A stretch of DNA of 35,802 bases from a virus (taxonomy: Duplodnaviria; Heunggongvirae; Uroviricota; Caudoviricetes). How positions within the stretch are numbered: the first letter of the stretch is position 1; every line of letters starts with the position of its first letter. This document shows, in pieces, positions 1-34,296 of the stretch. A program made the position numbers and the translations under genes. Under the pieces are notes generated by a model, which made no database searches, was not told the origin of the DNA, and saw only the letters and a program-made list of their open reading frames with translations. The stretch lies in the IMG/VR virus record IMGVR_UViG_2711768064_000002, one strand, 5' to 3'.

Positions 1-318
1 ATGAAAAAGATAGCTGCTATATCATTAATTAGTATTTTTATTGTGTCTGGTTGTGCTGTGCATAATGATGAGACAAGTATCGGTAAATTTGGTCTTGCAT
101 ATAAAAGTAATATTCAGCGTAAACTCGATAACCAATACTACACCGAAGCCGAAGCTTCTTTAGCCAGGGGCAGAATATCTGGTGCAGAAAATATAGTAAA
201 AAATGATGCAGCCCATTTCTGTGTTACTCAGGGCAAAAAAATGCAGATAGTTGACCTGAAGACAGAAGGTGCAGGATTACATGGCGTCGCTCGTCTGACA
301 TTCAAATGTGGAGAGTGA
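1..318 (+). CDS. yegR: Small putative lipoprotein, 105 aa (host flank)
   Basis: ORF with N-terminal signal-like MKKIAAISLISIFIVSGCA, Cys at a lipobox-like position; sits outside attL. Symbol from recalled E. coli K-12 gene order yegQ-cyaR-...-yegR, not verified. Confidence 0.55.
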   Translation: MKKIAAISLISIFIVSGCAVHNDETSIGKFGLAYKSNIQRKLDNQYYTEAEASLARGRISGAENIVKNDAAHFCVTQGKKMQIVDLKTEGAGLHGVARLTFKCGE

Positions 319-475
319 GAATATTTTTTGGTAAGCGTCAAACATGCGCGTTCTGGTTGTGCTTAGCCGGAACCTGTGCGAGCACGATGCCGTTACGTGA
401 AAGGCATCGTGCTATGAAGGGAGATTCTATCGATGTGGTCAATGGAAGACGGTGACCAGGGATAGGGCTTATGCA

Positions 476-503
476 TAAAAAATAGGCCCGTGTAAGGGAG
501 ATT
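476..503. repeat. attL core (taaaaaataGgcccgtgtaagggagatt)
   Basis: Direct repeat of 34269..34296 with one mismatch (485 G vs 34278 A); lies next to the int 3' end. Confidence 0.85.
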
Positions 504-582
504 TAGGGTGTCACCAGTAGGGGCTTTCAACGGTACAATGCGGGTTTGAGCGGCATAAATTACCACTGAAAGCCCTTAAACG

Positions 583-1596
583 TTACTCTACTGTGGACAC
601 TGTGTGGACACTCTCGACCTCAGTACCACCTCTTAGCGGATTAAGAGAAATGGCGTCCTGAAGGTACTCTGGCGCAAAATGAGCGTAAACCATAGTTTGC
701 TCAATCCGCGTGTGACCTAGTATCCGTTGTAGCGTGATAATACTTCCTCCATTAATCATGAAATGAGTGGCAAAGCTGTGCCTTAGTGCATGTGTAGCTT
801 GCCCCATTGGCAAATCCGGTTTTATTGCTTTCATTGTTCGTCTGAAGCGAGGGTAATCAGCATCAGGGAATAAAAAACCTCGTTTGTTATCCGCGATCAT
901 TTTGGCAACAGCCTCTGAGATCGGGACGGTGCGTGGTTTGTTTGTTTTCGTTTTAACAAACGTGACGCGGTTATGGATGATATTTTCTGCTTTCAAACGA
1001 GCTGCTTCTCCCCAACGTGCTCCAGTACTCAGGCAAAGAATCGCAATCTTTTTGTTGTCGCCGTCAAGAGCAGCAAGCAGTAAGGCAATTTCTTCCTGCG
1101 TGAGATAGCCTGTGTCTGGTTTTTCCTCCTTAAGCCTTTTTGTCCCTCTGATAGGGTGCTCACCAAAGAATAACTCCGCTTCAATCAGGGCTGTAAACAT
1201 GCCGCTAATACATGTTAAATCACGATTGATACTCGAAGGTTTAATACCCTGACTTCTTCGGGTGGCGCAGTACTGGCTGATAAGCGATTTCGTAATTTGA
1301 AATGCGCATGGGTCATTCGTTATTTTTGTGAAGATTTCAATTTTCCCAAGATTAGATTTCCCATGCTCTTCGTGTTTACCCTTTAAATCCCACCAGATCT
1401 GTGTCAGCTCCGACAGACGTCGCTTGTCTGTTGGTTTTGATAGCCATTCTTTATTGTGGTGGTTGTACAACGTGTATTTCTCGAAAGCGACAGCTTCGCT
1501 TTTCTTATCAAACTTCCTACGGATGCGTTTTCCATTACGTCCAGTAGGGCGGATGTCCACTTCATATCGACCATCATCGAGTTTTTTGATTGCCAT
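583..1596 (-). CDS. int: Tyrosine integrase (P2 Int-like), 337 aa
   Basis: ORF adjacent to attL; C-terminal catalytic motifs ALRHSFATHF and GHTRIEQTMVYAH (R-HxxR-Y). Confidence 0.93.
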   Translation of the reverse strand: MAIKKLDDGRYEVDIRPTGRNGKRIRRKFDKKSEAVAFEKYTLYNHHNKEWLSKPTDKRRLSELTQIWWDLKGKHEEHGKSNLGKIEIFTKITNDPCAFQITKSLISQYCATRRSQGIKPSSINRDLTCISGMFTALIEAELFFGEHPIRGTKRLKEEKPDTGYLTQEEIALLLAALDGDNKKIAILCLSTGARWGEAARLKAENIIHNRVTFVKTKTNKPRTVPISEAVAKMIADNKRGFLFPDADYPRFRRTMKAIKPDLPMGQATHALRHSFATHFMINGGSIITLQRILGHTRIEQTMVYAHFAPEYLQDAISLNPLRGGTEVESVHTVSTVE

Positions 1597-1711
1597 CAGA
1601 AAACCCTCCGAGTGGTGTGTTTTTTTGCGACTACTAATCGCTTTTTTCGTGGTGGCTGAAATTTAGCCACCAATAGTAGGCACTTGTGATGAATATATTC
1701 ACGATGAATTG

Positions 1712-2011
1712 TTAACCAGTCTTTTGACCGGAGTGGGGCGACGTTGTTTCGTTTTGCCCAAAGTGTGCGAGAGCGGGCGCAATTTGCCCGGACTCAGGAG
1801 CGATCTGATTGGTCATGAACCATAAAGTGTATTTGGTGAATTGTGGGGTCTGCAGGATGTTCATCATGACATCTGTTGGAGGTGTTGAACGACCACTTTC
1901 ATAGTAACTCAGCGTGCCATACGGAACCCCTGTTAAATCAGCAAGTTGTTGTCTGCTCAAATACTCTGATTTTCGCATTAAGACTATCTTCTCGCTTATC
2001 GTGTTTGACAT
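1712..2011 (-). CDS. C: Immunity repressor C, 99 aa, HTH
   Basis: 99-aa ORF divergent from cox; HTH segment LSRQQLADLTGVPYGTLSYYESG; size and position match P2 C. Confidence 0.88.
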   Translation of the reverse strand: MSNTISEKIVLMRKSEYLSRQQLADLTGVPYGTLSYYESGRSTPPTDVMMNILQTPQFTKYTLWFMTNQIAPESGQIAPALAHFGQNETTSPHSGQKTG

Positions 2012-2125
2012 GGTGTTTAGATCTCAATAGTATTTAGTTTAGATGTAGATTGTTTAGTGCTTGGATGTGGGCACTAAAAGGCATTATAAGACATTAAACG
2101 CAATTCATGAGGGCTAGAGGACGAC
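2012..2125. promoter_or_regulatory. Divergent early promoter/operator region (Pc/Pe switch)
   Basis: 114-bp AT-rich interval between divergent C and cox; reiterated TTTAG-containing motifs (tatttagtttagatgtagattgtttag) plausible C operator half-sites. Exact -35/-10 not resolved. Confidence 0.55.
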
Positions 2126-2401
2126 ATGAGCAAGCAAGTAACACTCATGACTGATGCGATTCCTTATCAGGAGTTCGCAAAACTAATAGGAAAATCGACA
2201 GGAGCGGTTCGTCGGATGATCGATAAAGGAAAGCTGCCTGTAATTGATATGACCGATCCACAATCAGCTTCAGGTCGTGCAGGTGAATATTGGGTATACC
2301 TTCCGGCATGGAATAACGGACTAAAACTGGCTTATGAAAGCCGCCCTAAAGAGATTCGTGACGGCTGGTTGATGTGGTTAGGTCTCGGTGAACCACGTTA
2401 A
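2126..2401 (+). CDS. cox: Cox excisionase / transcriptional regulator, 91 aa
   Basis: 91-aa ORF starting MSKQVTLMTDAIPYQEFAKLIGKSTGAVRRMIDKGKLP, recognised from memory as P2 Cox; first gene of early rightward operon. Confidence 0.9.
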   Translation: MSKQVTLMTDAIPYQEFAKLIGKSTGAVRRMIDKGKLPVIDMTDPQSASGRAGEYWVYLPAWNNGLKLAYESRPKEIRDGWLMWLGLGEPR

Positions 2402-2582
2402 GGAGAACCGTATGAATGAGCCTCGTTGTATTGCTCAGTTACTGCGTAACGAAAGCCCCAGGGCGATTGACTTCACCATCACCCACGGTAAGGGGCGTAA
2501 GGGAATCATTATCCGCACCAAAAAACAGAGTCCGTTAAAAAAGGCTCTGACCTTTCTGAAAAGCCGGAGGGTATGGAAATGA
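2388..2582 (+). CDS. Small early protein (P2 orf78-like), 64 aa; alternative start at 2412
   Basis: ORF overlapping cox stop and B start, typical of the tightly packed P2 early operon. Confidence 0.6.
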   Translation: MNHVKENRMNEPRCIAQLLRNESPRAIDFTITHGKGRKGIIIRTKKQSPLKKALTFLKSRRVWK

Positions 2583-3893: not shown

Positions 3894-4165
3894 GTATTCG
3901 TATTGAAATTGGCGAACGTTATGTCGTTACCAGTGACAGCTTTCAGTTTATTCTCCACGAGAAAAAGAGAGCGGAAAGCGGTAAAAACGCCGGTCAGGAA
4001 TGGCTGGCGGTGGTTGGTTATTACCCGAAATTAAGCCAGCTCGTTTCCGGCCTGATGCATCACGATATTCTGACCGGAAGCGCAAAGTCTTTTGCTGATT
4101 TAAACGCGCAGGTTGAGCAACTCAGCAAGCGTTGTTCAGAGGCTTTTGGCTCATATGGCCGTTAA
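3890..4165 (+). CDS. Early hypothetical protein (P2 orf83-like), 91 aa
   Basis: ORF directly upstream of and overlapping the A start. Confidence 0.6.
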   Translation: MSIRIEIGERYVVTSDSFQFILHEKKRAESGKNAGQEWLAVVGYYPKLSQLVSGLMHHDILTGSAKSFADLNAQVEQLSKRCSEAFGSYGR

Positions 4166-6431
4166 AGCCTCCGGGCGTTTTGTCCCTCCGTCAGCATTTG
4201 CCGCAGGCACCGGTAAGACGTTTACCGGTGCTTATGCATGGAACGCGCCACGCGAGGCTGTCGGGCGCGAAAGACCCCTTACACGTGACGAGATGCGTCA
4301 GGTGCAAGGTGTTTTATCCACGATTAATCGCCAGCCTTACTTTTTGCGCTCGCTGTTTACTTCACGCTATGACTACATCCGGCGCAATAAAAGCCCGGTG
4401 CACGGGTTTTATTTCCTCACATCCACTTTTCAGCGTCGTTTATGGCCGCGCATTGAGCGCGTTAATCAGCGCCATGAAATGAACACCGACGCGTCGTTGC
4501 TGTTTCTGGCAGAGCGTGACCACTATGCGCGCCTGCCTGGAATGAATGACAAGGAGCTGAAAAAGTTTGCCGCCCGTATCTCATCGCAGCTTTTCATAAT
4601 GTATGAGGAACTCTGCGATGCCTGGGTGGATGCGCATGGCGAGAAAGAATCGCTGTTTACGGATGAGGCGCAGGCTCACCTGTATGGTCATGTTGCTGGC
4701 GCTGCACGTGCTTTCAATATTTCCCCGCTCTACTGGAAAAAATACCGTAAAGGACAGATGACCACGAGGCAGGCATATTCTGCCATTGCCCGCCTGTTTA
4801 ACGATGAGTGGTGGACTCATCAGCTTAAAGGCCAGCGTATGCGCTGGCATGAGGCGTTACTGATTGCTGTCGGGGAGGTCAATAAAGACCGTTCTCCTTA
4901 TGCCAGTAAACATGCCATTCGTGATGTGCGTGCACGCCGCCAGGCAAATCTGGAATTTCTTAAATCGTGTGACCTTGAAAACAGGGAAACCGGCGAGCGC
5001 ATCGACCTTATCAGTAAGGTGATGGGCAGTATTTCTAATCCTGAAATTCGCCGGATGGAGCTGATGAACACCATTGCCGGTATTGAGCGTTACGCCGCAG
5101 CAGAGGGTGATGTGGGGATGTTTATCACGCTGACCGCGCCGTCAAAGTATCACCCGACACGTCAGGTCGGAAAAGGCGAAAGTAAAACCGTCCAGCTAAA
5201 TCACGGCTGGAACGATGAGGCATTTAATCCAAAGGATGCGCAGCGTTATCTCTGCCATATCTGGAGCCTGATGCGCACGGCATTCAAGGATAATGATTTA
5301 CAGGTCTACGGTTTGCGTGTCGTCGAGCCACACCACGACGGAACGCCGCACTGGCATATGATGCTTTTTTGTAATCCACGCCAGCGTAACCAGATTATTG
5401 AAATCATGCGTCGCTATGCGCTCAAAGAGGATGGCGACGAAAGAGGAGCCGCGCGAAACCGTTTTCAGGCAAAACACCTTAACCGGGGCGGTGCTGCGGG
5501 ATATATCGCGAAATACATCTCAAAAAACATCGACGGCTATGCACTGGATGGTCAGCTCGATAATGATACCGGTAGGCCGCTGAAAGACACAGCTGCGGCT
5601 GTTACCGCATGGGCGTCAACGTGGCGCATTCCGCAATTTAAAACGGTTGGTCTGCCGACAATGGGGGCTTACCGTGAACTACGCAAATTGCCTCGCGGCG
5701 TCAGCATTGCTGATGAGTTTGACGAGCGCGTCGAGGCTGCACGCGCCGCTGCAGACAGTGGTGATTTTGCGTTGTATATCAGCGCGCAGGGCGGGGCAAA
5801 TGTCCCGCGCGATTGTCAGACTGTCAGGGTCGCCCGTAGCCCGTCGGATGACGTTAACGAGTACGAGGAAGAAGTCGAGAGAGTGGTCGGCATTTACGCG
5901 CCGCATCTCGGCGCGCGTCATATTCATATCACCAGAACGACGGACTGGCGCATTGTTCCGAAAGTGCCGGTCGTTGAGCCTTTGACTTTAAAAAGCGGCA
6001 TCGCCGCGCCTCGGAGTCCTGTCAATAACTGTGGAAAGCTCACCGGTGGTGATACTTCGTTACCGGCTCCCACACCTTCTGAGCACGCCGCAGCCGTGCT
6101 TAATCTGGTTGATGACGGTGTTATCGAATGGAATGACCCGGAGGTCGTGAGGGCGCTCAGGGGCGCATTAAAACACGGCCTGAGAACACCAAACCGTCAG
6201 CAAAGAAACGGAAGCCCGTTAAAACCGAATGAAATAGCGCCATCGGCCAGGCTGACCCGGTCGGAGCGTATGCAAATTACCCGTATCCGCGTTGACCTTG
6301 CTCAGAACGGTATCAGGCCGCAGCGATGGGAGCTTGAGGCGCTGGCGCGTGGCGCGACCGTAAATTATTACGGGAAATCTTTCAATTATCAGGTCGCTGA
6401 TGAGTGGCCTGGATTTTTGTTACCCATTTGA
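4155..6431 (+). CDS. A: Replication initiator A (rolling-circle HUH endonuclease), about 758 aa; ORF opens at 4113
   Basis: Long ORF; HUH-type motif HHDGTPHWHMMLF and downstream GYIAKYISKNIDGY (catalytic Tyr region). Start at MAVKASGRF chosen from recalled P2 gpA N-terminus. Confidence 0.9.
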   Translation: MAVKASGRFVPPSAFAAGTGKTFTGAYAWNAPREAVGRERPLTRDEMRQVQGVLSTINRQPYFLRSLFTSRYDYIRRNKSPVHGFYFLTSTFQRRLWPRIERVNQRHEMNTDASLLFLAERDHYARLPGMNDKELKKFAARISSQLFIMYEELCDAWVDAHGEKESLFTDEAQAHLYGHVAGAARAFNISPLYWKKYRKGQMTTRQAYSAIARLFNDEWWTHQLKGQRMRWHEALLIAVGEVNKDRSPYASKHAIRDVRARRQANLEFLKSCDLENRETGERIDLISKVMGSISNPEIRRMELMNTIAGIERYAAAEGDVGMFITLTAPSKYHPTRQVGKGESKTVQLNHGWNDEAFNPKDAQRYLCHIWSLMRTAFKDNDLQVYGLRVVEPHHDGTPHWHMMLFCNPRQRNQIIEIMRRYALKEDGDERGAARNRFQAKHLNRGGAAGYIAKYISKNIDGYALDGQLDNDTGRPLKDTAAAVTAWASTWRIPQFKTVGLPTMGAYRELRKLPRGVSIADEFDERVEAARAAADSGDFALYISAQGGANVPRDCQTVRVARSPSDDVNEYEEEVERVVGIYAPHLGARHIHITRTTDWRIVPKVPVVEPLTLKSGIAAPRSPVNNCGKLTGGDTSLPAPTPSEHAAAVLNLVDDGVIEWNDPEVVRALRGALKHGLRTPNRQQRNGSPLKPNEIAPSARLTRSERMQITRIRVDLAQNGIRPQRWELEALARGATVNYYGKSFNYQVADEWPGFLLPI

Positions 6432-6690
6432 GTAAAAATGCAGCGTGATTTTATATGCCTTTGAATGGGTTATGCGAAGCGCCTCTAAGGCAGATGAGGA
6501 GCAATAGCATGCTGAAGTAGAAGGCTAAATTGTATTGAATCGCTAGCATGTAATTTAAAGCAGCTATTTGATTCGAGTCATAAAAGAGCATCTATTTCGG
6601 CTAATAAAACCATTGCGAGTGACCTTTTGTCGAAGCATAATTCATCTCGAGCGAAGTCTTGCTAGTCTTTCATCGGAATGATGACAGGCG

Positions 6691-6722
6691 CAAAAAAACC
6701 ACCCTGGCAGGTGGTTTTTTTG
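6691..6722. terminator. Bidirectional rho-independent terminator
   Basis: aaaaaaaccaccctggcaggtggttttttt: GC stem flanked by an A-run and a T-run, so it can terminate on either strand. Confidence 0.7.
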
Positions 6723-6733
6723 TTTGAAGCATA

Positions 6734-6847
6734 CTAAAGAATAATACTTACATGGATATTACTGACGTTTACTGACAAACCACTTGGACTACCATATGGA
6801 TAGCCAAAGAGGGCCAGAACGAGAATGCAGTAATAGCACTTCTTCAT
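6734..6847 (-). CDS. 37-aa hydrophobic small protein (MKKCYYCILVLALFGYPYGSPSGLSVNVSNIHVSIIL)
   Basis: Not in the ORF track (under 60 aa). Preceded by SD-like aggagg (rc of 6851..6856) and followed by the 6691..6722 terminator. Function unknown. Confidence 0.4.
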   Translation of the reverse strand: MKKCYYCILVLALFGYPYGSPSGLSVNVSNIHVSIIL

Positions 6848-7419
6848 ATCTCCTCCTGTAAGCAGAGGGCAATTTCCGCCGATATATGCGCTTCTAAGGC
6901 GGAGTTACTATTTAGCGAAGTCTTGCCCTGAAATAATGCTCTGTTTAAACGCAAAGTGATCTGGCATATCACCGAACAGAGAGCCTGAACAACACAACAT
7001 ATAGTATGTCGTTGTTTCTGGTTGCATTTTATGTTGTGTAATCCTGGTTTTGCATCAAGGATGTTTGAGCTTTTTTTGATATAGCTCAAAGTAAAAAGCA
7101 GAGACTACGGATGATAAGGTATTGAAAGCAATGTAAATTTTTTAAAGTTATTGGCGGCTAAAAAATGCACGGTTTCAATATGGTGGACTTAAATAAGCAA
7201 TTAAAAAAGTCATAAATATCACTAAAATCATGGTGTTACGTTTTTTTTGTGGGAGCTGCGGTGACGCTTAAGTTGATTTGTCATTAAATAAGCCGTGCAT
7301 GCAACAAGTGAATGTTTTTGCATGCGTCGGGGATGCCCGTTCCGGCTGCTTGCGGTCAGAGCTGGTGCGGATCCATAGTATCTATGCAACTGCATTAAAA
7401 CCGCCACATGAAGCGGGCG

Positions 7420-7438
7420 GGCGAGGCGGGGAAAGCAC
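7420..7438. other. cos cohesive-end site (GGCGAGGCGGGGAAAGCAC)
   Basis: Exact match to the 19-nt P2/186 cohesive-end sequence as I recall it; sits between A and Q as expected in the prophage. Confidence 0.8.
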
Positions 7439-7592
7439 TGCGCGCAAAATGTTCTTGAAATATTTGTGACATAAGCTAAGACACAAAATGATTGAAGGGC
7501 AGAGCAAATCCTACAGTCCTATGCTATTGTCTCATGTAATGCAGATAAGTTGAAAATTATCTTAAAATATAAGAGTAAAGACATTAAAAGGA

Positions 7593-9860
7593 TTGGTTAT
7601 GAATAATAACTCTAAGTTATTAAGCTCTATCTCGGTTGAATCTGATTTCGAGAACCTTATAAAACTATATGCAAATGAGTTATTTGGTGGTGAAACATAT
7701 CTGATCGGTGGTCCTTGGGATAATGGAAAGGATTTGGTAATAAAAAAGGGGAATAGAGAGTTAAAGCAAGCTGTACAAATATCTATTCAAGAGAAAAATA
7801 TTGAAAGTAAGATTGCTCAAGATATTAAAAAAGTGGCGAAATTGGTTGATGATCATTATTACCCGCCTGTATTATATTTTTTTTGGAGTCATTCAATATC
7901 TGAGCATTTATTGGATAAGATAAGAACAAATGCTCTTAAGGAAGATTTGATTAGATTGGAGTTTTATGATGCCAAACGGATCTCTCAAGATATTACAGAT
8001 AAATACCCAGGGTTATTGAATTACTTAATAAAAGATATACATAAGATAAGTTCTAATACTGAAGATGCAATTAACTTGCAACAAAGAGCATTTTATGAAT
8101 ATTTATTGTTAAGCAAAGATAGTGCTAATTTAAAAAATGAAATAATAAAAGCTAGTATTATGTCTAATTTATATGATGGCGGGAAGTCTGCTGATGATAT
8201 TCTAGAGAATCTAAAAGGTGTTAGTCTTACAAAACGTAGTTTACAGGGTAGACTGCAAAACCTAATTCATCAAAATAAAATTAGATTGAATGATGGTATA
8301 TATAGCCTGTCACCAGAGGAAATTAAAAAGCTTGAGAATATAAATCTCCGTGAAATTGTCAGAAAAGAAGAGTTGTTATCAGTAATAAATAATGAGTTGC
8401 CCAGAAATACAAGTAAGAATCTGGCTGTTCAAGTTGTTGATTTAATAATAAAGGCTTATGAAGAATCAATAAATGTCCAATTAACAGAAAGTAAATTTGA
8501 GCCTCCAAAATTACAGATATTCAAAACTATAGTACATAATTTAAAGGTGTTGATACGGCAGGAATATGATTTGGATGATGAGTCTTCGGATGCTTTAGCA
8601 AAAAAGCTAATGGAGTTGGCTGGTCAAAATGACTATTTATCCGAGCATTGCTCTGCTAAATTATGTGTGAATCTTTTAAGTGATCGGAAATTAGAGAAAT
8701 ATATTGAAAATAAAAATTTTTATATCTACTTTGATGCGCCTGTTCTTATTCCATATTTGATAACTCTTATGTTTGGAGATTTTGAGCTTTTTGATAAGTC
8801 GATTAAAAATATAAATTTACTGAGAGAGTGCATAAATCCCCTCAAAAATAAACATCTGAGAGTTTCTAATGAACATTTTGAAGAAACTGCAAGGCACTAC
8901 TCTGAAGCTGAAAAATTAAGTCAGTTTGTAACTGAAGATTTAATTAGTCAACTTGGTGAGTCGAAAAATGTATACTTTAATGTTTATATGCGGTGGAAAA
9001 ACAAACAGCCTAAACGTACAGATTTTTACGATTTTACTTATGCTTTTCTAGGGTTGGATAAAGATGATATTTATGCGGGGTATAAGCATGACACATTTGC
9101 GCAATGCATTCATAATTTACTAGCGTCAGCAAATATTGTTGTAATTGATAATAAAGACTCGGTGTCACAAGACTTTGTATTTAAAATAAAGCAAAAACTT
9201 AAAAGGGATTTGAATTCTTCACGTCCCGTTCGAGCCATAGAAAATGATGTTATATGTGCTGCAACTTTGAGTGATGAAACCCTACATCTTGATTCCAATG
9301 GTTACTTCAGTACTCCCATGCTAATAACACTTGATAGATCTCAATATCTATTGAGAAGCATAGTAAGAAATGAAAGGAGACATGCTGAATGGTTGGTTTA
9401 TACCCCTCAAAGAGCAATTGAACGTCTTTCCTTGGTGGGTTTAAAAATATCATCGGAATCGTTAAAGGATGGTGTTTTAGCAACCATATCAGAAGAATAT
9501 TTCTTTAAAGAAAGTTCCAGTAGTTTGATTGATACTTTGGCTATTATCATTGGAGATAATCAAGCAAGGCAAGGAGATGTTATTAGGCTTGCATCGCTTT
9601 TAAAAAGAAAGGTCAATGAGGAATCTATTGAGAATTCAGAAATTGATATTGAACACTATAATAACATTAGTTATGTGCTTCTTTTCATTCATCGTGAATT
9701 TAAATCTGAATTTTCAAATATAATAAAAATTTTTGCTGAGGATAGTAGGCGAGATAAACTGGTTGAAGTTTTGTTATCCACTATTCAAGGAGTTTTTGAT
9801 GAGAGTAAAAAGGAAATCTTGCGCTCAAATATAGGACGGTTGTTGGCTGAAATGGGATGA
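7593..9860 (+). CDS. Cargo protein of unknown function, 755 aa, AT-rich; possible N-terminal PD-(D/E)xK/Mrr-like nuclease fold
   Basis: Long uninterrupted ORF with Lys/Asn/Ile-rich composition unlike the GC-rich phage backbone. Motif weakly similar to Mrr-type nuclease cores: DNGKDLVIKKGNRELKQAVQISIQEK. Possible Rx4H at RNERRH. Confidence 0.85.
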   Translation: MVMNNNSKLLSSISVESDFENLIKLYANELFGGETYLIGGPWDNGKDLVIKKGNRELKQAVQISIQEKNIESKIAQDIKKVAKLVDDHYYPPVLYFFWSHSISEHLLDKIRTNALKEDLIRLEFYDAKRISQDITDKYPGLLNYLIKDIHKISSNTEDAINLQQRAFYEYLLLSKDSANLKNEIIKASIMSNLYDGGKSADDILENLKGVSLTKRSLQGRLQNLIHQNKIRLNDGIYSLSPEEIKKLENINLREIVRKEELLSVINNELPRNTSKNLAVQVVDLIIKAYEESINVQLTESKFEPPKLQIFKTIVHNLKVLIRQEYDLDDESSDALAKKLMELAGQNDYLSEHCSAKLCVNLLSDRKLEKYIENKNFYIYFDAPVLIPYLITLMFGDFELFDKSIKNINLLRECINPLKNKHLRVSNEHFEETARHYSEAEKLSQFVTEDLISQLGESKNVYFNVYMRWKNKQPKRTDFYDFTYAFLGLDKDDIYAGYKHDTFAQCIHNLLASANIVVIDNKDSVSQDFVFKIKQKLKRDLNSSRPVRAIENDVICAATLSDETLHLDSNGYFSTPMLITLDRSQYLLRSIVRNERRHAEWLVYTPQRAIERLSLVGLKISSESLKDGVLATISEEYFFKESSSSLIDTLAIIIGDNQARQGDVIRLASLLKRKVNEESIENSEIDIEHYNNISYVLLFIHREFKSEFSNIIKIFAEDSRRDKLVEVLLSTIQGVFDESKKEILRSNIGRLLAEMG

Positions 9861-9875
9861 TTTCTTGGTTATTGA

Positions 9876-9910
9876 ACGGCACTATGGTCGTTGCTTATAG
9901 TGCCGTTTTA
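9876..9910. terminator. Stem-loop terminator between cargo gene and Q 3' end
   Basis: aacggcactat..atagtgccgtt 11-bp stem followed by tttt; lies between convergent genes. Confidence 0.65.
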
Positions 9911-9951
9911 AGGTGTCGTGCCATTATGAATGGCATATCCGAGTTTATATA

Positions 9952-10986
9952 TTAGGTATCGCAAGTATCTAGTGAGTAGTTTTTAAAGCGGATGACCTCC
10001 TGACCGAGCCAGCCGTTTATCTCGCGGATCCTGTCCTGTAACGGGATAAGCTCATTGCGGACAAAGACCTTTGCCACTTTCTCAATATCGCCCAGTGACC
10101 CGACGTTCTCCGGCTTGCCGCCCATCAACTGAAAGGGGATGCGGTGCGCGTCCAGTAGGTCAGCGGCGCTGGCTTTTTTGATATTAAAAAAATCGTCCTT
10201 CGTTGCGACTTCACTGAGCGGGATAATTTTAATGCCGTCGGCTTTCCCCTGTGGGGCATAGAGAAACAGATTTTTAAAGTTGTTGCGGCCTTTCGACTTC
10301 ACCATGTTTTCGCGGAGCATTTCGATATCGTTGCGATCCTGCACGGCATCAGTGACGTACATGATGTATCCGGCATGTGCGCCGTTTTCGTAATACTTGC
10401 GGCGGAACAGCGTGGCCGACTCATTCAGCCAGGCAGAGTTAAGGGCGCTGAGATATTCCGGCAGGCCGTACAACTCCTGATTAATATCCGGCTCCAGCAG
10501 GTGAAACACGGAGCCGGGCGCGAAGGCTGTCGGTTCGTTGAAGGACGGCACCCACCAGTAAACATCCTCTTCCACCCCACGGCGGGTATATTTTGCCGGT
10601 GAGGTTTCCAGTCTGATGACCTTACCGGTGGTGCTGTAACGCTTTTCCAGAAACGCATTACCGAACACCAGAAAATCCAGCACAAAGCGGCTGAAATCCT
10701 GTTGTGAAAGCCACGGATGCGGGATAAATGTCGAGGCCAGAATATTACGTTTGACGTAAATCGGTGAGCTGTGATGTACGGCAGCACGCAGGCTTTTTGC
10801 CAGACCGGTAAAGCTGACCGGTGGCTCATACCATCTGCCGTTACTGATGCACTCGACGTAATCCAGAATGTCACGGCGGTCGAGTACCGGCACCGGCTCA
10901 CCAAAGGTGAATGCCTCCATTTTCGGGGCGCTGGCGGTGATTGTTTTTGCCGCAGGTTGCGGTGTTTTCCCTTTTTTCTTGCTCAT
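9952..10986 (-). CDS. Q: Portal protein Q, 344 aa
   Basis: Size identical to P2 Q; leftward late operon next to cos; start overlaps P stop. Confidence 0.92.
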   Translation of the reverse strand: MSKKKGKTPQPAAKTITASAPKMEAFTFGEPVPVLDRRDILDYVECISNGRWYEPPVSFTGLAKSLRAAVHHSSPIYVKRNILASTFIPHPWLSQQDFSRFVLDFLVFGNAFLEKRYSTTGKVIRLETSPAKYTRRGVEEDVYWWVPSFNEPTAFAPGSVFHLLEPDINQELYGLPEYLSALNSAWLNESATLFRRKYYENGAHAGYIMYVTDAVQDRNDIEMLRENMVKSKGRNNFKNLFLYAPQGKADGIKIIPLSEVATKDDFFNIKKASAADLLDAHRIPFQLMGGKPENVGSLGDIEKVAKVFVRNELIPLQDRIREINGWLGQEVIRFKNYSLDTCDT

Positions 10987-12758
10987 CAGTAAAACTCCAG
11001 AATGGTGGATGTCAGCGGGGTGCTGATACCGGCGGTGAGTGGCTCATTTAACAGGGCGTGCATGGTCGCCCAGGCGAGGTCGGCGTGGCTGGCTTCCTCG
11101 CTGCGGCTGGCCTCATAGGTGGCGCTGCGTCCGCTGCTGGTCATGGTCTTGCGGATAGCCATAAACGAGCTGGTGATGTCGGTGGCGCTGACGTCGTATT
11201 CCAGACAGCCACGGCGGATAACGTCTTTTGCCTTGAGCACCATTGCGGTTTTCATTTCCGGCGTGTAGCGGATGTCGCGCGCGGCAGGATAGAACGAGCG
11301 CACGAGCTGGAACACGCCGACACCGAGGCCGGTGGCATCAATACCGATGTATTCGACGTTGTATTTTTCGGTGAGTTTGCGGATGGATTCCGCCTGGGTG
11401 GCAAAGTCCATGCCTTTCCACTGGTGACGCTCAAGTATTCTGAATTTGCCACCGGCAACCACCGGCGGTGCCAGTACCACGCATCCGGCGCTGTCGCCAC
11501 GGTGTGACGGGTCGTAACCAATCCAGACCGGGCGTGAGCCGAACGGATTGGCGGCAAACGGCGCATAGTCTTCCCATTCTTCCAGCGTGTCGACCATGCA
11601 GCGTTGCAACTCCTCGAACGGGAACACCGACGCCTTGTCGTCAACAAATTCACACATGAACAGGTTTTTAAAATCGTCGGCGCTGTTTTCGCGTTTGAGC
11701 TGCTCAATGTCGAACAGCGTGCAGCCGCCTTTCAGGGCGTCCTCAATGGTGACAATCTGCCGCCACTGGCCGTCCGCACAGAGAAGACCTCCGGCAAGTG
11801 CGTTATGACTGACGTCGATTTCCACGCGTTCAGCGGCGCTGGCGCGTCCCCGGTTAAACAGTTCACCCGACCAGAACGGGTAGGCGTCGTGCGCCAGCGT
11901 GGACGGGGTGGAGAAATAGGTCGAACGCAGGTGACTCTGTGAGGCCATACCTGATGCCACCTTACGCAGTACCTGAAAATTCGGGATCCAGAAAATCTCG
12001 TCGACGTACAGGTCGCCGTTATGGCTCTGCGCGGTGTTGGAGTTGGTGCCGAGAAAAATCAGTTTTGCGCCGTTATTGCCCAGGACAATTGGGTCACCGG
12101 TCAGGTCAACGTCAACCAGACGGGCAAAGGCGATGATGTATTCGCGGAACACATACGCCTGCGTTTTACTGGCCGACAGAAAAATCTGGTTATGGCCGGT
12201 TTTCAGGGCGCGCAGCAGCGCCTCGCGGGAAAAATAAAACGTTGCGCCAATCTGGCGGGATTTCAGGATATCGCGGATGCGGTGCTCAAGCCCGGCGCGA
12301 TACCAGTGCAACTGATATTCGAAAGACTGCTCAAAGAAAATCTGCTCCAGCTTTTCGATGGCTTCGTCGCTGAAAAAATTCTTTTTCGGTTTGCGGCGCC
12401 CGCCTTTGTTGCGGTTAGCGACGTTCGGATTAAGGTCTGCCTCGTTGCCGGTCTGACTGTAGCGGTTGACCCGCGCCAGCCGTTCAATCTGGCGTCCCAG
12501 CAGGTCAATTTCCTTGAAGTCACCGCCGGTTTTCTGCGGTTTGATGATGAGCTGGGTCAGCCGCGCTTCCAGACTCATTTCGACACGGCTGATGGGGGCA
12601 ACGCTGTCCCAGCCGTCGCGCTGTTTCCAGCTCTGCACCGTCGGGCGTTTCATCTGCAACATGGCGGCAATCTGCGGCACGGAAAACCCCTGCCAGTACA
12701 GCAGCGCCGCCTGACGACGCGGGTCGTGTAAAAGAGTGGTGTCTGTGGTGATGGTCAT
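10986..12758 (-). CDS. P: Terminase large subunit P (ATPase), 590 aa; ORF extends to 12788
   Basis: Start at MTITTDTTLLHDPRR gives 590 aa as in P2 P; Walker-like ATPase context; translationally coupled to Q. Confidence 0.92.
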   Translation of the reverse strand: MTITTDTTLLHDPRRQAALLYWQGFSVPQIAAMLQMKRPTVQSWKQRDGWDSVAPISRVEMSLEARLTQLIIKPQKTGGDFKEIDLLGRQIERLARVNRYSQTGNEADLNPNVANRNKGGRRKPKKNFFSDEAIEKLEQIFFEQSFEYQLHWYRAGLEHRIRDILKSRQIGATFYFSREALLRALKTGHNQIFLSASKTQAYVFREYIIAFARLVDVDLTGDPIVLGNNGAKLIFLGTNSNTAQSHNGDLYVDEIFWIPNFQVLRKVASGMASQSHLRSTYFSTPSTLAHDAYPFWSGELFNRGRASAAERVEIDVSHNALAGGLLCADGQWRQIVTIEDALKGGCTLFDIEQLKRENSADDFKNLFMCEFVDDKASVFPFEELQRCMVDTLEEWEDYAPFAANPFGSRPVWIGYDPSHRGDSAGCVVLAPPVVAGGKFRILERHQWKGMDFATQAESIRKLTEKYNVEYIGIDATGLGVGVFQLVRSFYPAARDIRYTPEMKTAMVLKAKDVIRRGCLEYDVSATDITSSFMAIRKTMTSSGRSATYEASRSEEASHADLAWATMHALLNEPLTAGISTPLTSTILEFY

Positions 12759-12931
12759 GAATACCTCGCCGTGATGAATACACGGCAAGGCTACTGAGTC
12801 GCGCCCCGCGATTCGCTAAGGTGCTGTTGTGTCAGTGATAAGCCATCCGGGACTGATGGCGGAGGATGCGCATCGTCGGGAAACTGATGCCGACATGTGA
12901 CTCCTCTAATCACTATTCAGGACTCCTGACA
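12759..12931. promoter_or_regulatory. Divergent late promoter region (PP/PO), Ogr-dependent
   Basis: Intergenic between divergent P and O; contains TGT..ACA-type elements (ctgttgtgtcagtg...gacatgtgac). Inferred from P2 organisation. Confidence 0.5.
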
Positions 12932-19234: not shown

Positions 19235-20308
19235 TTACTTTCCATTTTTTAATGAATTGATTAACGATGCTATTTGCTCAATGCCATCAAATGTAGATGG
19301 TATCTTATCATCGGATAGCATGATGTTTGAAAATACTACGTCTTCGAATTTTGAAAGCGCTTCCGGATTGTTTTTCCTTATCTCTGAGGAATAGTCGCTA
19401 TAACTCTGAATGAACTGACAAAGGCTCTTTCTGAGTTCTATTTGCATAATCTGAGTTCGTAACGATATATGATTTAGCAGTACAACTCTAAAGTAATACA
19501 TGAAAATCAATGTAACTGATGCAAAAGGTAGTGCTGACATAAAATATGTGGCAGCATTTGTCGTTTCGAGAGTTGGTAATTTATGCATTCCATAGTATAT
19601 CAGCGGGGAGGGAATGATTATAGCCAAGATGATAAGAATTATTCTTGATAGCATGATTTCACTTTCTTTCTTTTTGCCAAGTGAATTAAAGCCTTCAAAC
19701 AATCCAACAAAATTAAATGCGACCTCATACCCTTTTAATGACTCTTTAATTGACTCTATTTTGGCATGTTGCTCCTTTAAGAAGGAGTCGCACTTTTCGA
19801 AAAATTGACGCCCTTCGTTTAAACTATCAATGTATTTTTTATATGTGTCAACATTGCTGGAGCTTAAAACTTCTTTAACCATTGCTAATGGCAGTTCTCT
19901 AAGAGAAAAGTCTATCTGTGCTCTGCTCCGCTCATCGAATTCATTATAGTTATACAGAGCAAAATCCTTGATGGTTCTTAGTGGTGAAAAGTGAGACTCT
20001 ATTTCCGGAGAGAGAATGCTTGGTTCAATGATAAATCTAAAAAAGCAAGTAAATATAAGGTTGATGCTGTTGTTATCTTCTCCCTTCTCTCTTAAGAAAC
20101 TTTTAAAGGTGTCGCCAATCATAGCAATGTTGTACTGGGATTTTTTGTCCCAATCTTCAGGGTTTTCGGAAATGAAGTTTATTGCTTGAGCAATTATTTT
20201 GTTTCTGTTTGATTCAAAGTTTGTGCTGGGAGTCAGCGTGTTCAAAAAGACCAGATAATCTTTGAACAATTCTTTCATTGTTTCTGACGAGAAAAAGTAA
20301 GTACTCAT
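19235..20308 (-). CDS. AT-rich cargo membrane protein with two predicted TM helices, about 357 aa; ORF opens at 20404 (389 aa)
   Basis: Soluble N-terminal region then hydrophobic helices IMLSRIILIILAIIIPSPLIYYGM and FMSALPFASVTLIFMYYFRVVLL. Start at MSTYFF (20308) preferred because the 20404 start overlaps the V start. Confidence 0.8.
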   Translation of the reverse strand: MSTYFFSSETMKELFKDYLVFLNTLTPSTNFESNRNKIIAQAINFISENPEDWDKKSQYNIAMIGDTFKSFLREKGEDNNSINLIFTCFFRFIIEPSILSPEIESHFSPLRTIKDFALYNYNEFDERSRAQIDFSLRELPLAMVKEVLSSSNVDTYKKYIDSLNEGRQFFEKCDSFLKEQHAKIESIKESLKGYEVAFNFVGLFEGFNSLGKKKESEIMLSRIILIILAIIIPSPLIYYGMHKLPTLETTNAATYFMSALPFASVTLIFMYYFRVVLLNHISLRTQIMQIELRKSLCQFIQSYSDYSSEIRKNNPEALSKFEDVVFSNIMLSDDKIPSTFDGIEQIASLINSLKNGK

Positions 20309-20394
20309 AATGGATTTTGTTGTCCCTTGTTGTTCTGTGCACCAGAAATCATGGTGTGATTTACTTCGAGATAGTACAGAATCATTATTATCGA
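20309..20394. promoter_or_regulatory. Late promoter region upstream of V (PV); likely also holds the cargo gene promoter
   Basis: Intergenic between divergent cargo gene and V; TGT-rich element ttgttgtcccttgttgttctgtgcacc. Inferred from P2 organisation. Confidence 0.45.
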
Positions 20395-21024
20395 ATGAAT
20401 GCACAATACAATGAAATTCTTCGCTTTATACGCAATATGATTCGCACTGGCATTATCGTCGAAACCGACCTTAATGCCGGTCGCTGCCGTGTGCAGACCG
20501 GCGGCATGTGCACCGACTGGCTTCAGTGGCTGACCCATCGCGCCGGGCGTTCGCGCACATGGTGGGCACCTTCCGTGGGGGAACAGGTGCTGATTCTGGC
20601 CGTGGGTGGTGAACTCGACACGGCGTTCGTTCTGCCGGGGATTTATTCCGGCGATAACCCCGCGCCGTCTGCGTCGGCGGATGCCCTGCATATCCGTTTC
20701 CCTGACGGGGCGGTGATTGAATATGAACCCGAAACCAGTGCACTCATGGTAAGCGGAATTAAAACGGCCAGCGTGACGGCTTCTGATTCTGTTACTGCCA
20801 CGGTGCCGGTGGTCATGGTGAAAGCATCAACCCGCATCACCCTGGACACACCGGAGGTGGTCTGCACCAACAGGCTGATTACCGGCACGCTGGAAGTGCA
20901 GAAGGGCGGGACGATGCGCGGCAACATTGAACACACCGGCGGTGAACTCTCATCAAACGGTAAGGTACTGCATACCCATAAACACCCCGGCGACAGCGGC
21001 GGCACAACCGGGAGTCCTCTATGA
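20395..21024 (+). CDS. V: Baseplate spike/assembly protein V, about 209 aa; ORF opens at 20317
   Basis: NMIRTGIIVETDLNAGRCRVQTGGMCTDWLQWL recognised as P2 V. Confidence 0.9.
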   Translation: MNAQYNEILRFIRNMIRTGIIVETDLNAGRCRVQTGGMCTDWLQWLTHRAGRSRTWWAPSVGEQVLILAVGGELDTAFVLPGIYSGDNPAPSASADALHIRFPDGAVIEYEPETSALMVSGIKTASVTASDSVTATVPVVMVKASTRITLDTPEVVCTNRLITGTLEVQKGGTMRGNIEHTGGELSSNGKVLHTHKHPGDSGGTTGSPL

Positions 21025-25668: not shown

Positions 25669-27108
25669 ATGGGAAATCACGATTTTATTAAATATATTAT
25701 ATTATTTGGCTTGTCTGGGATAATGTTGGCTATGCTAGTGCTCTTTATTTCCTCTGTAGCATATTATTTTTTCACCCATAATAAAGGAGTTCTTCAGTAT
25801 ATAATTAAAACTATTTCCATAGGCCTTGTAACTATTCCAGTCGCAATAATACTAATCGTTGCACTCGTCCATTATGTTGTCTGGCAAAAAGGGATTTCAA
25901 CGGCATGGCGTTTTATATTCCACTCGACTAAAACAACAACCGTGAATGATATTGCTAATGCTGAATCAGAAGATGTTATTGTTCACCTTGTTCATGGAAC
26001 ATTCGAGACGAATGCATCTTGGACACAACCTGAGTCAAAAATGTGCAAATCAATTAACTCAAGGAATCCCAATATTGGTATATCTCGATTTAAATGGGAT
26101 GGCAAAAACTCTGCATCCTCTCGTAAACAAGCGGCATATCAATTAGGAATGCATATTGATAACTCTCCTGCAAAATACAATTATATTATTGCACATAGCC
26201 ATGGGGCAGCTATTGTAAGAGAAATGTCTTATTTACGAAGTGATATTGCAAAAAAAATTCAAGGCGTATGTCTTTTGTCACCACCGTTCATCTTTCGACG
26301 TAGGATAAAAAGAACGTCAGGTGCTTTAATTAATCTTATTGATATTAGCGGAACTTTGGCCATTCAATTGTTACTTGCAGTATTTTTTGTACCTTTGAAT
26401 CTATATAATATTAATTATGCAGCAGTAATTTTTTTTGTTTCAATATTTGCAGAAATTATAATCTCCAAAAAATATAAAAAAGAATTTTTGCAGGAAGTTG
26501 AGAGTGGCGAGCACTGTGAAGCGGTTGATTTTAGGAATGTTGAAATTTATCACGCAATTGGTGATGAAGCCGATTCAGGCCTAAGATTTGTAAGTTCACT
26601 TCACGAAGGATGTTTTGCAATTCTTTCCCAGCTAAAAAAAGCTCAAGTAAGTCATAAAAAGCTAACACATTGGTCAGCAGTTTTAAGCTACCTATTTTAT
26701 ATTTCCATGAGTGTATTAATATGGTTCTTCTATCCTGAAGAAAAATCATGGATTATAGTATTATTAGTAAGCTTTGTATTAACTTCTATTTCTCACATTT
26801 GGCAAAGGTTGAAACCATCAAAGGATGTTCCTCATGTTTTACTTATTGCAGCAATACCAGTTGCGATTTTTTCATTTTGGTTGGCTGTAGCTAAGGCCAT
26901 AGCTTATGGAGATTTGCGATTAATATTTTGCCCGGAAGTTTTTATTGCATCATCTGAAACTCCAGCTGGAGATCATAAAGTTATTAAATTTGCTCCACAG
27001 AATGATGGTATATTAATACACTCAACACACTCGCATCCGGAGGCTATAATTAATGTTTCTGAATGGTTATATTGCTCTGAGAATAAAAGGGTAAATGGTG
27101 AATCATAG
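25669..27108 (+). CDS. AT-rich cargo polytopic membrane protein with serine-hydrolase-like motifs, 479 aa
   Basis: N-terminal TM helices, then VIVHLVHGTFE (HG oxyanion-like) and IIAHSHGAAIV (GxSxG-like elbow), further TM segments, C-terminal ILIHSTHSH. Occupies the Z/fun position between G and FI. Confidence 0.85.
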   Translation: MGNHDFIKYIILFGLSGIMLAMLVLFISSVAYYFFTHNKGVLQYIIKTISIGLVTIPVAIILIVALVHYVVWQKGISTAWRFIFHSTKTTTVNDIANAESEDVIVHLVHGTFETNASWTQPESKMCKSINSRNPNIGISRFKWDGKNSASSRKQAAYQLGMHIDNSPAKYNYIIAHSHGAAIVREMSYLRSDIAKKIQGVCLLSPPFIFRRRIKRTSGALINLIDISGTLAIQLLLAVFFVPLNLYNINYAAVIFFVSIFAEIIISKKYKKEFLQEVESGEHCEAVDFRNVEIYHAIGDEADSGLRFVSSLHEGCFAILSQLKKAQVSHKKLTHWSAVLSYLFYISMSVLIWFFYPEEKSWIIVLLVSFVLTSISHIWQRLKPSKDVPHVLLIAAIPVAIFSFWLAVAKAIAYGDLRLIFCPEVFIASSETPAGDHKVIKFAPQNDGILIHSTHSHPEAIINVSEWLYCSENKRVNGES

Positions 27109-34268: not shown

Positions 34269-34296
34269 TAAAAAATAAGCCCGTGTAAGGGAGATT
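34269..34296. repeat. attR core (taaaaaataAgcccgtgtaagggagatt)
   Basis: Direct repeat of attL; coincides with the 3' end of the sRNA gene. Confidence 0.85.

Follow-up and report, generated by a model that had tools for sequence, protein, structure and literature searches.

The window analysed here, a stretch of 35,802 nt, carries a P2-type prophage framed by two copies of the att core GCCCGTGTAAGGGAGATT, which is the longest exact direct repeat between the window ends. Its main features, with genes A and Q as given by the list of open reading frames, are the following.

486..503, P2-type att core, left copy
4113..6431, plus strand, gene A (replication endonuclease), left border of the cos-proximal hotspot
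6432..7385, A-side arm (position of old and tin in P2), gene-less filler of about 40-44% GC
7386..7445, plus strand, cos core, made up of a left flank of about 34 bp, the cohesive end of 19 nt (7420..7438) and then TGCGCGC (7 bp)
7446..9962, plus strand, AT-rich cargo cassette of 2517 bp, delimited by the blastn breakpoints against the empty prophage L291
7599..9860, plus strand, cargo gene, 753 aa, RefSeq WP_053286240, predicted Mrr-like, winged-helix and PIN-like domains
9874..9909, plus strand, stem-loop followed by UUUU, likely terminator of the cargo gene
about 9918..9936, second hairpin
9952..10986, minus strand, gene Q (portal), right border of the hotspot
10986..12788, minus strand, gene P
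34279..34296, P2-type att core, right copy

The prophage between the att cores measures 33,793 bp, close to the 33,593 bp of P2 because the classical A-side arm, that of old and tin, is empty. The DNA of gene A is 98.7% identical to that of Ecol_AZ159, where it is annotated as a replication endonuclease. No ORF of at least 100 aa is listed in the A-side arm. The segment 6432..7419, which comprises this arm and most of the cos core, is covered to at least 80% in 148 E. coli genomes and bears no annotated feature among the 12 matches listed; an Rfam scan gave a sub-threshold RNAI-like match only (6690..6800), which we regard as chance. L195, which holds another copy of the cargo gene, differs from the window by an indel on the A side. 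At the other border, Q has 344 aa as in P2; over residues 1-341 its identity to relatives reaches 100%, and the final three residues are changed (..LDTCDT versus ..LDTDND in P2).

Separated from the end of A by 988 bp, the 19-mer GGCGAGGCGGGGAAAGCAC (7420..7438, plus strand) occurs once in the window and is identical at 19 of 19 positions to the annotated cosL/cosR of phage P2 (AF063097). In 100 shuffles no match to it was found even when up to three mismatches were allowed, so that none is expected by chance. When the sequences are lined up on cos, the core 7386..7445 is common to P2, to its satellite P4, to the window and to a 186-like prophage of Rahnella, and all four diverge right after position +7. 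The stretch shared by P2 and P4 amounts to about 56-60 bp and likewise ends at cos+7, in line with the conserved core of about 55 bp around the P2/P4 cohesive end attributed to Ziermann & Calendar (1990) in the passage of PMC5694545 that cites them. The window retains this core whole apart from one or two substitutions in the left flank, and its +1 base after cos is a T, as in P2. Judged by both its cohesive end and its core, 7420..7438 is a predicted cos of the P2/P4 type, at which cleavage by the P2 terminase would give 5' overhangs of 19 nt.

The limits of the cassette were obtained by blastn against L291, a near-identical sister prophage with an empty locus. Homology stops at 7445 and restarts at 9963, and the flanks are 98-99% identical. 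Where L291 has its native cos-Q spacer of 174 bp, the window has the 2517-bp cassette, which replaced this spacer together with the tQ terminator and the last Q codons; the right junction thus falls inside the final codons of Q, whose length is kept. The GC content of the cassette is 29-35% (about 31%) versus about 55% for the backbone. Its only long ORF, and the only one between cos and Q, is 7593/7599..9860 on the plus strand, which counts 753 aa when started at the ATG. When 50,697 phage records were searched by megablast with the cassette, the cos core alone was retrieved. The preliminary description had placed a 19-nt cos about 1 kb after A and a cargo gene between cos and Q, at the extreme left end of the linear virion DNA. 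These statements hold: the interval 7420..9951 opens with the first base of cos and closes just short of the Q stop, and the ATG of the cargo gene lies 180 nt from the predicted left end. It had also supposed that the site still permits packaging, which is reasonable in view of the homology to P2, P4 and L291, spanning the whole cos core and breaking at cos+7. Since the left junction of the cassette falls exactly at the end of the cos core, packaging should be unaffected.

The cargo gene and Q are convergent, and the hairpins at 9874..9909 and about 9918..9936 are likely to separate cargo transcription from that of Q and P. The region 9861..9951 folds more stably than expected as RNA on both strands (z = -4.1 on the plus strand and -4.5 on the minus strand). 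The hairpin at 9874..9909 was overlooked by the terminator scan because of its long loop and was picked up by folding. As for promoters, a scan gave fewer sites than shuffled sequences did, and none upstream of the cargo ATG was convincing.

The predicted structure of the cargo protein, a confident model, displays an Mrr-like PD-(D/E)xK fold at about residues 1-135, a winged helix at about 198-237, then a helical linker followed by a PIN-like domain at about 374-615. A restriction-endonuclease-like fold and a PIN fold are both present in this model. Pfam and NCBIfam scans of the protein gave no meaningful match, no curated Pfam PIN profile scored above threshold for it, and PADLOC-DB v2 returned no family at E <= 1; a distant homologue matches PIN_12 weakly and under the cut-off (E = 0.0055). 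Neither the full profile nor sub-profiles for the N- and C-terminal parts retrieved more than chance-level matches from the PDB sequences, and Foldseek against the viral structures of BFVD found nothing significant. Residues D379, E429, D550 and D579 are invariant across 31 homologues and D565 nearly so, which makes them candidate active-site residues of the PIN-like domain. The catalytic motif of Mrr-type nucleases is D...(Q/E)xK. D45 and Q60 are invariant and the lysine position is occupied in the window by a serine (Q60-I-S62); the eight representative homologues compared all have S or T there. Because a serine stands in place of the canonical lysine, the N-terminal domain may be inactive. 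Compared with Avs4, which has an N-terminal Mrr-like nuclease, and with the PIN toxins of the VapC type, the cargo protein has neither a STAND/ATPase module nor an antitoxin partner, and it lacks both a sequence-profile match and the Mrr-type catalytic lysine.

At 50% identity the family falls into about 500 clusters, and the N-terminal module is a different one in some of its members. In the contexts examined the homologues are always solo genes, located in prophages or islands, and no antitoxin-sized ORF was seen beside the cargo gene or its homologues in any of them. A homologue 71% identical to the cargo protein occupies the same cos-Q position in the Rahnella P2/186-like prophage, whose Q and P are 67% and 72% identical to those of the window; the cargo has thus diverged about as much as these genes. 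The other copy in L195 carries a nonsense mutation. A literature search found no paper text naming WP_053286240, which appears in a supplementary table only, namely as a one-gene 'hypothetical' entry of the gpA-gpQ hotspot in Table S5 of Rousset et al. 2022 (PMC9122126).

Altogether, we consider it quite probable that 7446..9962 is a horizontally acquired AT-rich cassette lying in the cos-Q arm of the P2-family hotspot and encoding a probable anti-phage nuclease. In the 753-aa product, an Mrr-like nuclease fold would be joined to a winged helix and to a PIN-like domain whose acidic residues are conserved. This protein would most likely act as a lysogen-expressed, single-protein anti-phage nuclease of the abortive-infection type, by analogy with defence systems that other P2-like prophages carry at this position. 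Other Q-side cargoes include DRT2, retron RT-IV, PDC-S25, PDC-M38 and an ATPase resembling HEC-02/PD-T4-4, as well as AriA/Old-like, NsnA-like and PDC-S02 proteins. The cargo gene would then be a candidate for single-gene defence, its anti-phage role being predicted from the structural model.

On the other hand, the cargo might be a moron of a different kind, such as a regulator (given its winged helix), a host-fitness factor like ctx, or else a selfish toxin or addiction nuclease. This idea would fit the silence of PADLOC, the fact that ctx of phage phiCTX, at the same site, is a cytotoxin and not a defence gene, and the frequency of PIN domains as toxin modules of toxin-antitoxin systems. 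Nevertheless, the antitoxin-sized partner is missing, the protein has a nuclease architecture of several domains, the gene occurs alone in prophage hotspots and islands, and this site houses defence cargoes elsewhere. These points make the idea rather unlikely, and we favour an anti-phage function.

A second concern is that the prophage might be defective, or 7420..7438 not used as cos, the cassette being then housed in a decaying element. Supporting this idea, among complete E. coli genomes that of strain 1218KP alone has the cargo gene, and it carries the same cassette in a decayed prophage where A and P are truncated and IS elements lie close by; moreover, a solo homologue of Enterobacter, between baeR and yegQ, resembles a prophage remnant. 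Against it, the reading frames of A, Q and P are uninterrupted in the window, as are those of the complete head, tail and lysis set, both att cores are present at a distance of 33.8 kb, the cos core is intact apart from the substitutions in its left flank, and the flanks are 98-99% identical to those of a prophage with intact annotation. Decay of the window prophage thus appears improbable, and we retain a cassette carried by a P2-type prophage with an intact cos core.

We also considered whether recombination at the common cos core could have brought the cassette in from a P4-like satellite. A parallel can indeed be drawn with the P4 hotspot, in which variable DNA also begins at cos+8, lies on the same side of the cohesive end and has the same orientation towards it; in P4 itself, gop, beta and cII directly follow cos. 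P4 is a separate element, whose hotspot is bordered by psu...cos...int. Moreover, the occupied cos-Q interval of E. coli E24377A has a P4-type +1 base (GCACC). However, the cargo gene is absent from all 43 sampled P4-like loci, the +1 base of the window is the T of P2, and the Rahnella copy again lies in a P2/186-like phage, diverged about like Q and P. A satellite origin is therefore very improbable and, in our data, unsupported; acquisition among P2-like phages is preferred.

How often, then, is the cos-Q arm used? In P2 (AF063097) this interval is 167 bp long and holds the tQ terminator only, old and tin being located between A and cosR. The window has its Q side filled instead, and the preliminary description was right to find the placement unlike that of P2. 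It had further implied that such a placement is unusual, and this part is unsupported because relatives of P2 commonly carry a gene between cos and Q. Comparing the spacing across species-representative P2-like prophages, we found more than 500 bp of AT-rich DNA in the cos-Q interval of 32 of 77, with ORFs of at least 80 aa in almost all of the 32. Among E. coli P2-type loci with near-identical Q, Q-side cargo was seen in 3/79 IMG/VR loci and in 1/117 of a second IMG/VR sample, which adds little independent information on frequency because it largely overlaps the first; of 5426 complete E. coli genomes, one has this exact locus. The arms of the hotspot are thus used unevenly, with about 1-4% Q-side occupation in E. 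coli P2-type prophages versus about 40% elsewhere. The A side has a median length of 1505 bp in loci with an occupied Q side versus 2711 bp in those with a native one (p = 0.001, phylogenetically uncorrected), and such a trade-off in size between the two sides would point to a genome-size (capsid) constraint.

The closest known arrangement is that of phiCTX, in which a lone foreign gene with its own terminators separates the left cohesive end from the portal gene. The order cosL-ctx-Q is found in the record NC_003278 and was reported by Hayashi (1993) and Nakayama (1999), according to the passage of PMC5694545 that cites them. Both ctx and the window cargo are read away from cos and converge on Q. 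The two differ in that ctx encodes a pore-forming cytotoxin and the window gene a predicted nuclease-type protein, in cos sequence and in host, and in the size of the interval (about 1.4 kb for phiCTX versus 2.5 kb). The cosL-gpQ interval has been called a hotspot for foreign genes (PMC5694545). In the excerpts available of Rousset et al. (PMC9122126), the P2 defence hotspot is defined as gpA..gpQ, which therefore takes in the cos-Q arm. As in the window, the hotspot described in those excerpts and in the available portion of the 2026 paper of the Moura de Sousa group (PMC13586616) is bordered by A and Q and filled with AT-rich cassettes, hypervariable between near-identical phages; the former study covers 18,150 gpA-gpQ loci and the latter 8,165 P2-like prophages. 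There, the locus is set by its flanking genes and the sides of cos are kept together, whereas the window is empty on the A side and filled on the Q side. That the site would be an unusual, previously unrecognised one by the packaging signal, teaching something new on the tolerance of P2 cos, is hardly credible: the gene-free interval of P2 and the rarity of Q-side cargo in E. coli would suit it, but the cases of phiCTX, P4 and E24377A, the 32 occupied loci, the cosL-gpQ hotspot and 55-bp core already in PMC5694545 and the listing of WP_053286240 in PMC9122126 contradict it. The placement of the cassette is nothing new, given the phiCTX precedent from the 1990s and its position inside the published P2 hotspot.

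Every Q-side cargo examined begins right after cos+7. A possible explanation could come from the P2 terminase: because it packages P4, which is unrelated beyond +7, the left-end side would need nothing past +7 for cos recognition. If so, the sharp junction at cos+7 would be a boundary set by selection, and not a site-specific insertion point. Related phages would probably exchange their cassettes by recombining in the conserved flanks, that is, the A side and cos core on one hand and Q on the other.

A bolder proposal, which we advance tentatively, is that the 753-aa protein founds an undescribed single-gene anti-phage family, long held in the cos-Q arm by P2/186-like phages of different genera, the two arms being used unevenly by lineage and trading off in size.

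The coincidence of the cargo junctions with the end of the cos core, to the nucleotide, provides a sequence-level estimate of the minimal left-end DNA of the terminase. The P2-family hotspot consists of two arms with lineage-specific use, which existing surveys, in the parts available, apparently do not split. Finally, the cargo of the window is an uncharacterised protein with several predicted nuclease domains, which would make it a reasonable candidate for defence screens.

Judged by its sequence, the window carries what looks like a complete P2-like prophage, in a chromosomal site of E. coli type. Att cores of the P2 type at 486 and 34279 delimit an element of 33,793 bp (33,593 bp for P2). 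Its genes are arranged as int, C, cox, B-region, A, Q, P, then head, lysis and tail genes, and ogr. The features discussed here are the following.

4113..6431, + strand: A, from the gene list
7420..7438: 19-nt cohesive end, identical to the annotated cosL/cosR of P2 (AF063097)
7599..9860, + strand: cargo ORF, 753 aa; no other substantial ORF lies between cos and Q
9952..10986, - strand: Q
10986..12788, - strand: P
19235..20404, - strand: second AT-rich cargo ORF, 389 aa, between tail genes S and V, ~35% GC
25669..27108, + strand: third AT-rich cargo ORF, 479 aa, between G and FI (Z/fun position), ~35% GC

The preliminary description had placed a 19-nt cos about 1 kb past A, with a cargo gene between cos and Q, and had judged this arrangement unlike that of P2. 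All three points were borne out. The exact copy of the P2 cohesive end lies 988 bp after the end of A and occurs once in the window; no match to this 19-mer with up to 3 mismatches was obtained in 100 shuffles. In P2, by contrast, cos and Q are separated by 167 bp containing the tQ terminator alone, and old and tin occupy the interval from A to cosR.

The implication that the site is out of the ordinary is not supported. Phage phiCTX (NC_003278) has the same architecture (cosL 1..21; ctx 362..1222, +; Q 1417..2469, -), and in P4 gop, beta and cII directly follow cos on the same side as the window cargo. In 79 IMG/VR loci selected for a Q that shares 98-100% of matched residues with that of the window, the native cos-to-Q spacing of ~187 bp is found in 75, a deletion in one and a cargo of 1.5-2.1 kb in three, while a second sample, drawn mostly from the same loci, gave one Q-side cargo in 117. 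A survey of one genome per species (P2-like loci L211-L290, 77 counted) gave 32 loci with more than 500 bp, namely 553-4235 bp, between the Q stop and the seventh base after the cohesive end (+7). These 32 intervals have a GC content of 31-50%, against 50-60% in their flanks, and almost all contain ORFs of at least 80 aa, the largest of 918 aa. Within E. coli, phages of the P2 lineage proper thus seldom have Q-side cargo (~1-4% of P2-type loci), and elsewhere it is common (~41% of species representatives), phylogeny being ignored in these figures. A pattern search for cos up to +7 followed by a non-T base returned nine further distinct Q-side cassettes. E. coli E24377A (~6989-8965 in its locus) combines a window-like A-side filler with another Q-side cargo, made up of an AAA ATPase of 433 aa and a 145-aa ORF. 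Proteins of the IMG/VR Q-side cassettes match models for DRT2, retron RT-IV, PDC-S25 (SIR2-like), PDC-M38, HEC-02/PD-T4-4-like ATPases, AriA/Old-like, NsnA-like and PDC-S02. The Q-side arm is thus a regular, defence-rich part of the hotspot.

In the literature, the P2 hotspot was defined as gpA..gpQ, 'adjacent to the cos site' (Rousset et al. 2022, PMC9122126), and a 2026 NAR survey (PMC13586616) uses the same borders and reports that defence genes are almost never exchanged between P2 and P4; in the available text of both papers the A side and the Q side of cos are treated together. The window cargo protein (RefSeq WP_053286240) is in the supplementary table of Rousset et al., where it stands as a 'hypothetical' arrangement of one gene, present in two assemblies.

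The other arm, 6432..7419, contains no gene. It is present in 148 E. coli genomes (at least 80% coverage), and no feature is annotated in it among the 12 matches listed; the classical old/tin arm is here gene-less filler. Within it are a hairpin carrying a T-run (~6690..6722) and, on the - strand, a short ORF of hydrophobic character (~6849..6733). An RNAI-like Rfam match at 6690..6800 is below threshold (E = 0.064) and probably due to chance. Since the A-side and Q-side arms total 988 + 2513 bp in the window and 3255 + 167 bp in P2, genome size is preserved. In the species-representative loci the two arm sizes are inversely related (Spearman rho = -0.28, p = 0.015, phylogeny ignored), and loci with an occupied Q side tend to have a shorter A side (median 1505 bp versus 2711 bp for native loci; Mann-Whitney p = 0.001, phylogeny ignored).

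The cassette limits could be placed with a sister prophage of E. coli Ecol_AZ159, which is empty between A and Q and is 98.7% identical to the window over the left 7.0 kb and 98.0% over the right 5.8 kb. Homology ends at 7445, 7 bp beyond the cohesive end, and restarts at 9963, so that 2517 bp have taken the place of 174 bp of native DNA (spacer, tQ and last Q codons). The cassette has a GC content of 29-35%, against ~55% for the backbone. Q keeps its 344-aa length with its final three residues changed (..LDTCDT versus ..LDTDND in P2). RNA folding predicts two strong hairpins in the 91 nt between the cargo and Q stops (z = -4.1 for the + strand and -4.5 for the - strand); on the cargo strand, the first hairpin precedes UUUU and is thus a plausible replacement terminator. 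Several unrelated Q-side cassettes, those of the window (9940..9962) and of L083, L116 and L143, close on the right with a hairpin and then an AT-rich stretch resembling 'TTTATATA' that continues into a rewritten Q C-terminus. Replacement of the last few Q codons thus seems tolerated. An otherwise near-identical IMG/VR copy of the locus (L195; 16 differences in 2.6 kb) has a C-to-T at the equivalent of window 8922, turning cargo Q442 into a stop codon; the window copy is intact.

The left junction coincides with the limit of the packaging signal. When the window, P2, P4 and a Rahnella 186-like prophage are aligned on cos, all four share (GCAAC)TGCATTAAAACCGCC..AAGCGGGCGG, the 19-nt end and (T/C)GCGCGC, and each diverges straight past +7. 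This stretch agrees with the '55-bp core' that PMC5694545 credits to Ziermann & Calendar 1990. P2 terminase is established to package P4 (restated in PMC9122126), whose sequence past +7 is unrelated; we infer that no DNA past +7 is required on the Q side of cos. On this view the junction is sharp because recombinants cutting into the cos core would be selected against, not through a dedicated integration mechanism. In E24377A (NC_009801) the cohesive end is followed by the C of P4 (GCACCGCGCG), versus T in P2, which hints at a satellite-derived junction.

The cargo protein has no match in Pfam, NCBIfam, PADLOC or PDB sequence searches. A word-indexed search gave 46 homologues, none of which has a name, from Enterobacterales, Vibrio, Aeromonas and Pseudomonas, and in a profile search 499 of 1.84 billion cluster representatives matched at E <= 0.001. 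Most are ~750-780 aa long. Some of ~810-840 aa (P0131, P0146, P0166, P0174, P0181, P0189) have a different N-terminus and align only from query residue ~150 onward, which suggests an exchangeable N-terminal domain; P0131 and P0146 show weak, sub-threshold DUF4062 matches there. An AlphaFold2 model (31 sequences; mean pLDDT 81, pTM 0.67) resembles the Mrr-like PD-(D/E)xK nucleases AspBHI (10.3), AF1548 (9.9), FokI (8.6) and MspJI (8.3), as well as Avs4 and LlaBIII chains. In this N-terminal domain D45 and Q60 are invariant and a serine (S62) occupies the usual lysine position, so the predicted nuclease domain may be non-catalytic. D379, E429, D550 and D579 are also invariant among homologues, as would be expected of a putative PIN active site.

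In every context examined the homologue is a solo gene. Rahnella bonaserana has a 71%-identical copy in the same arm and at the same junction, with a 186-type cos (GGCGTGGCGGGGATAGCAT+TGCGCGC) on one side and the portal gene on the other. The cargo has diverged about as much as its phage neighbours (Q 67%, P 72%, A 55%), which suggests long residence at the cos-Q site rather than recent capture. Of the other homologues, Klebsiella aerogenes has one where a lambdoid prophage ends, islands of Vibrio have one beside an integrase, Erwinia has one downstream of smpB, and in the Enterobacter cloacae complex one stands alone between baeR and a yegQ/trhP homologue. Among complete E. coli genomes the cassette is found in 1218KP (NZ_CM173878) alone, in a decayed prophage with truncated A and P and with IS3 and IS903B nearby, in the same chromosomal neighbourhood as the Enterobacter copy. 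The cargo gene may outlive its phage. From these contexts and the content of the cos-Q site elsewhere, we lean, by a little over even chance, towards an anti-phage role as its most likely function.

Neither the 389-aa ORF, at the position of orf30 in P2, nor the 479-aa ORF matched in Pfam and PADLOC scans; with the cos-Q cargo, the prophage thus holds three uncharacterised accessory genes.

The cos-Q cargo is therefore real, and nothing out of the ordinary among P2-family phages: the gene, catalogued though uncharacterised, occupies a known accessory-gene site within a published hotspot. What interest remains is in the cargo protein, a candidate for defence, and in the match, exact to the nucleotide, of the cargo junctions to the end of the cos core.
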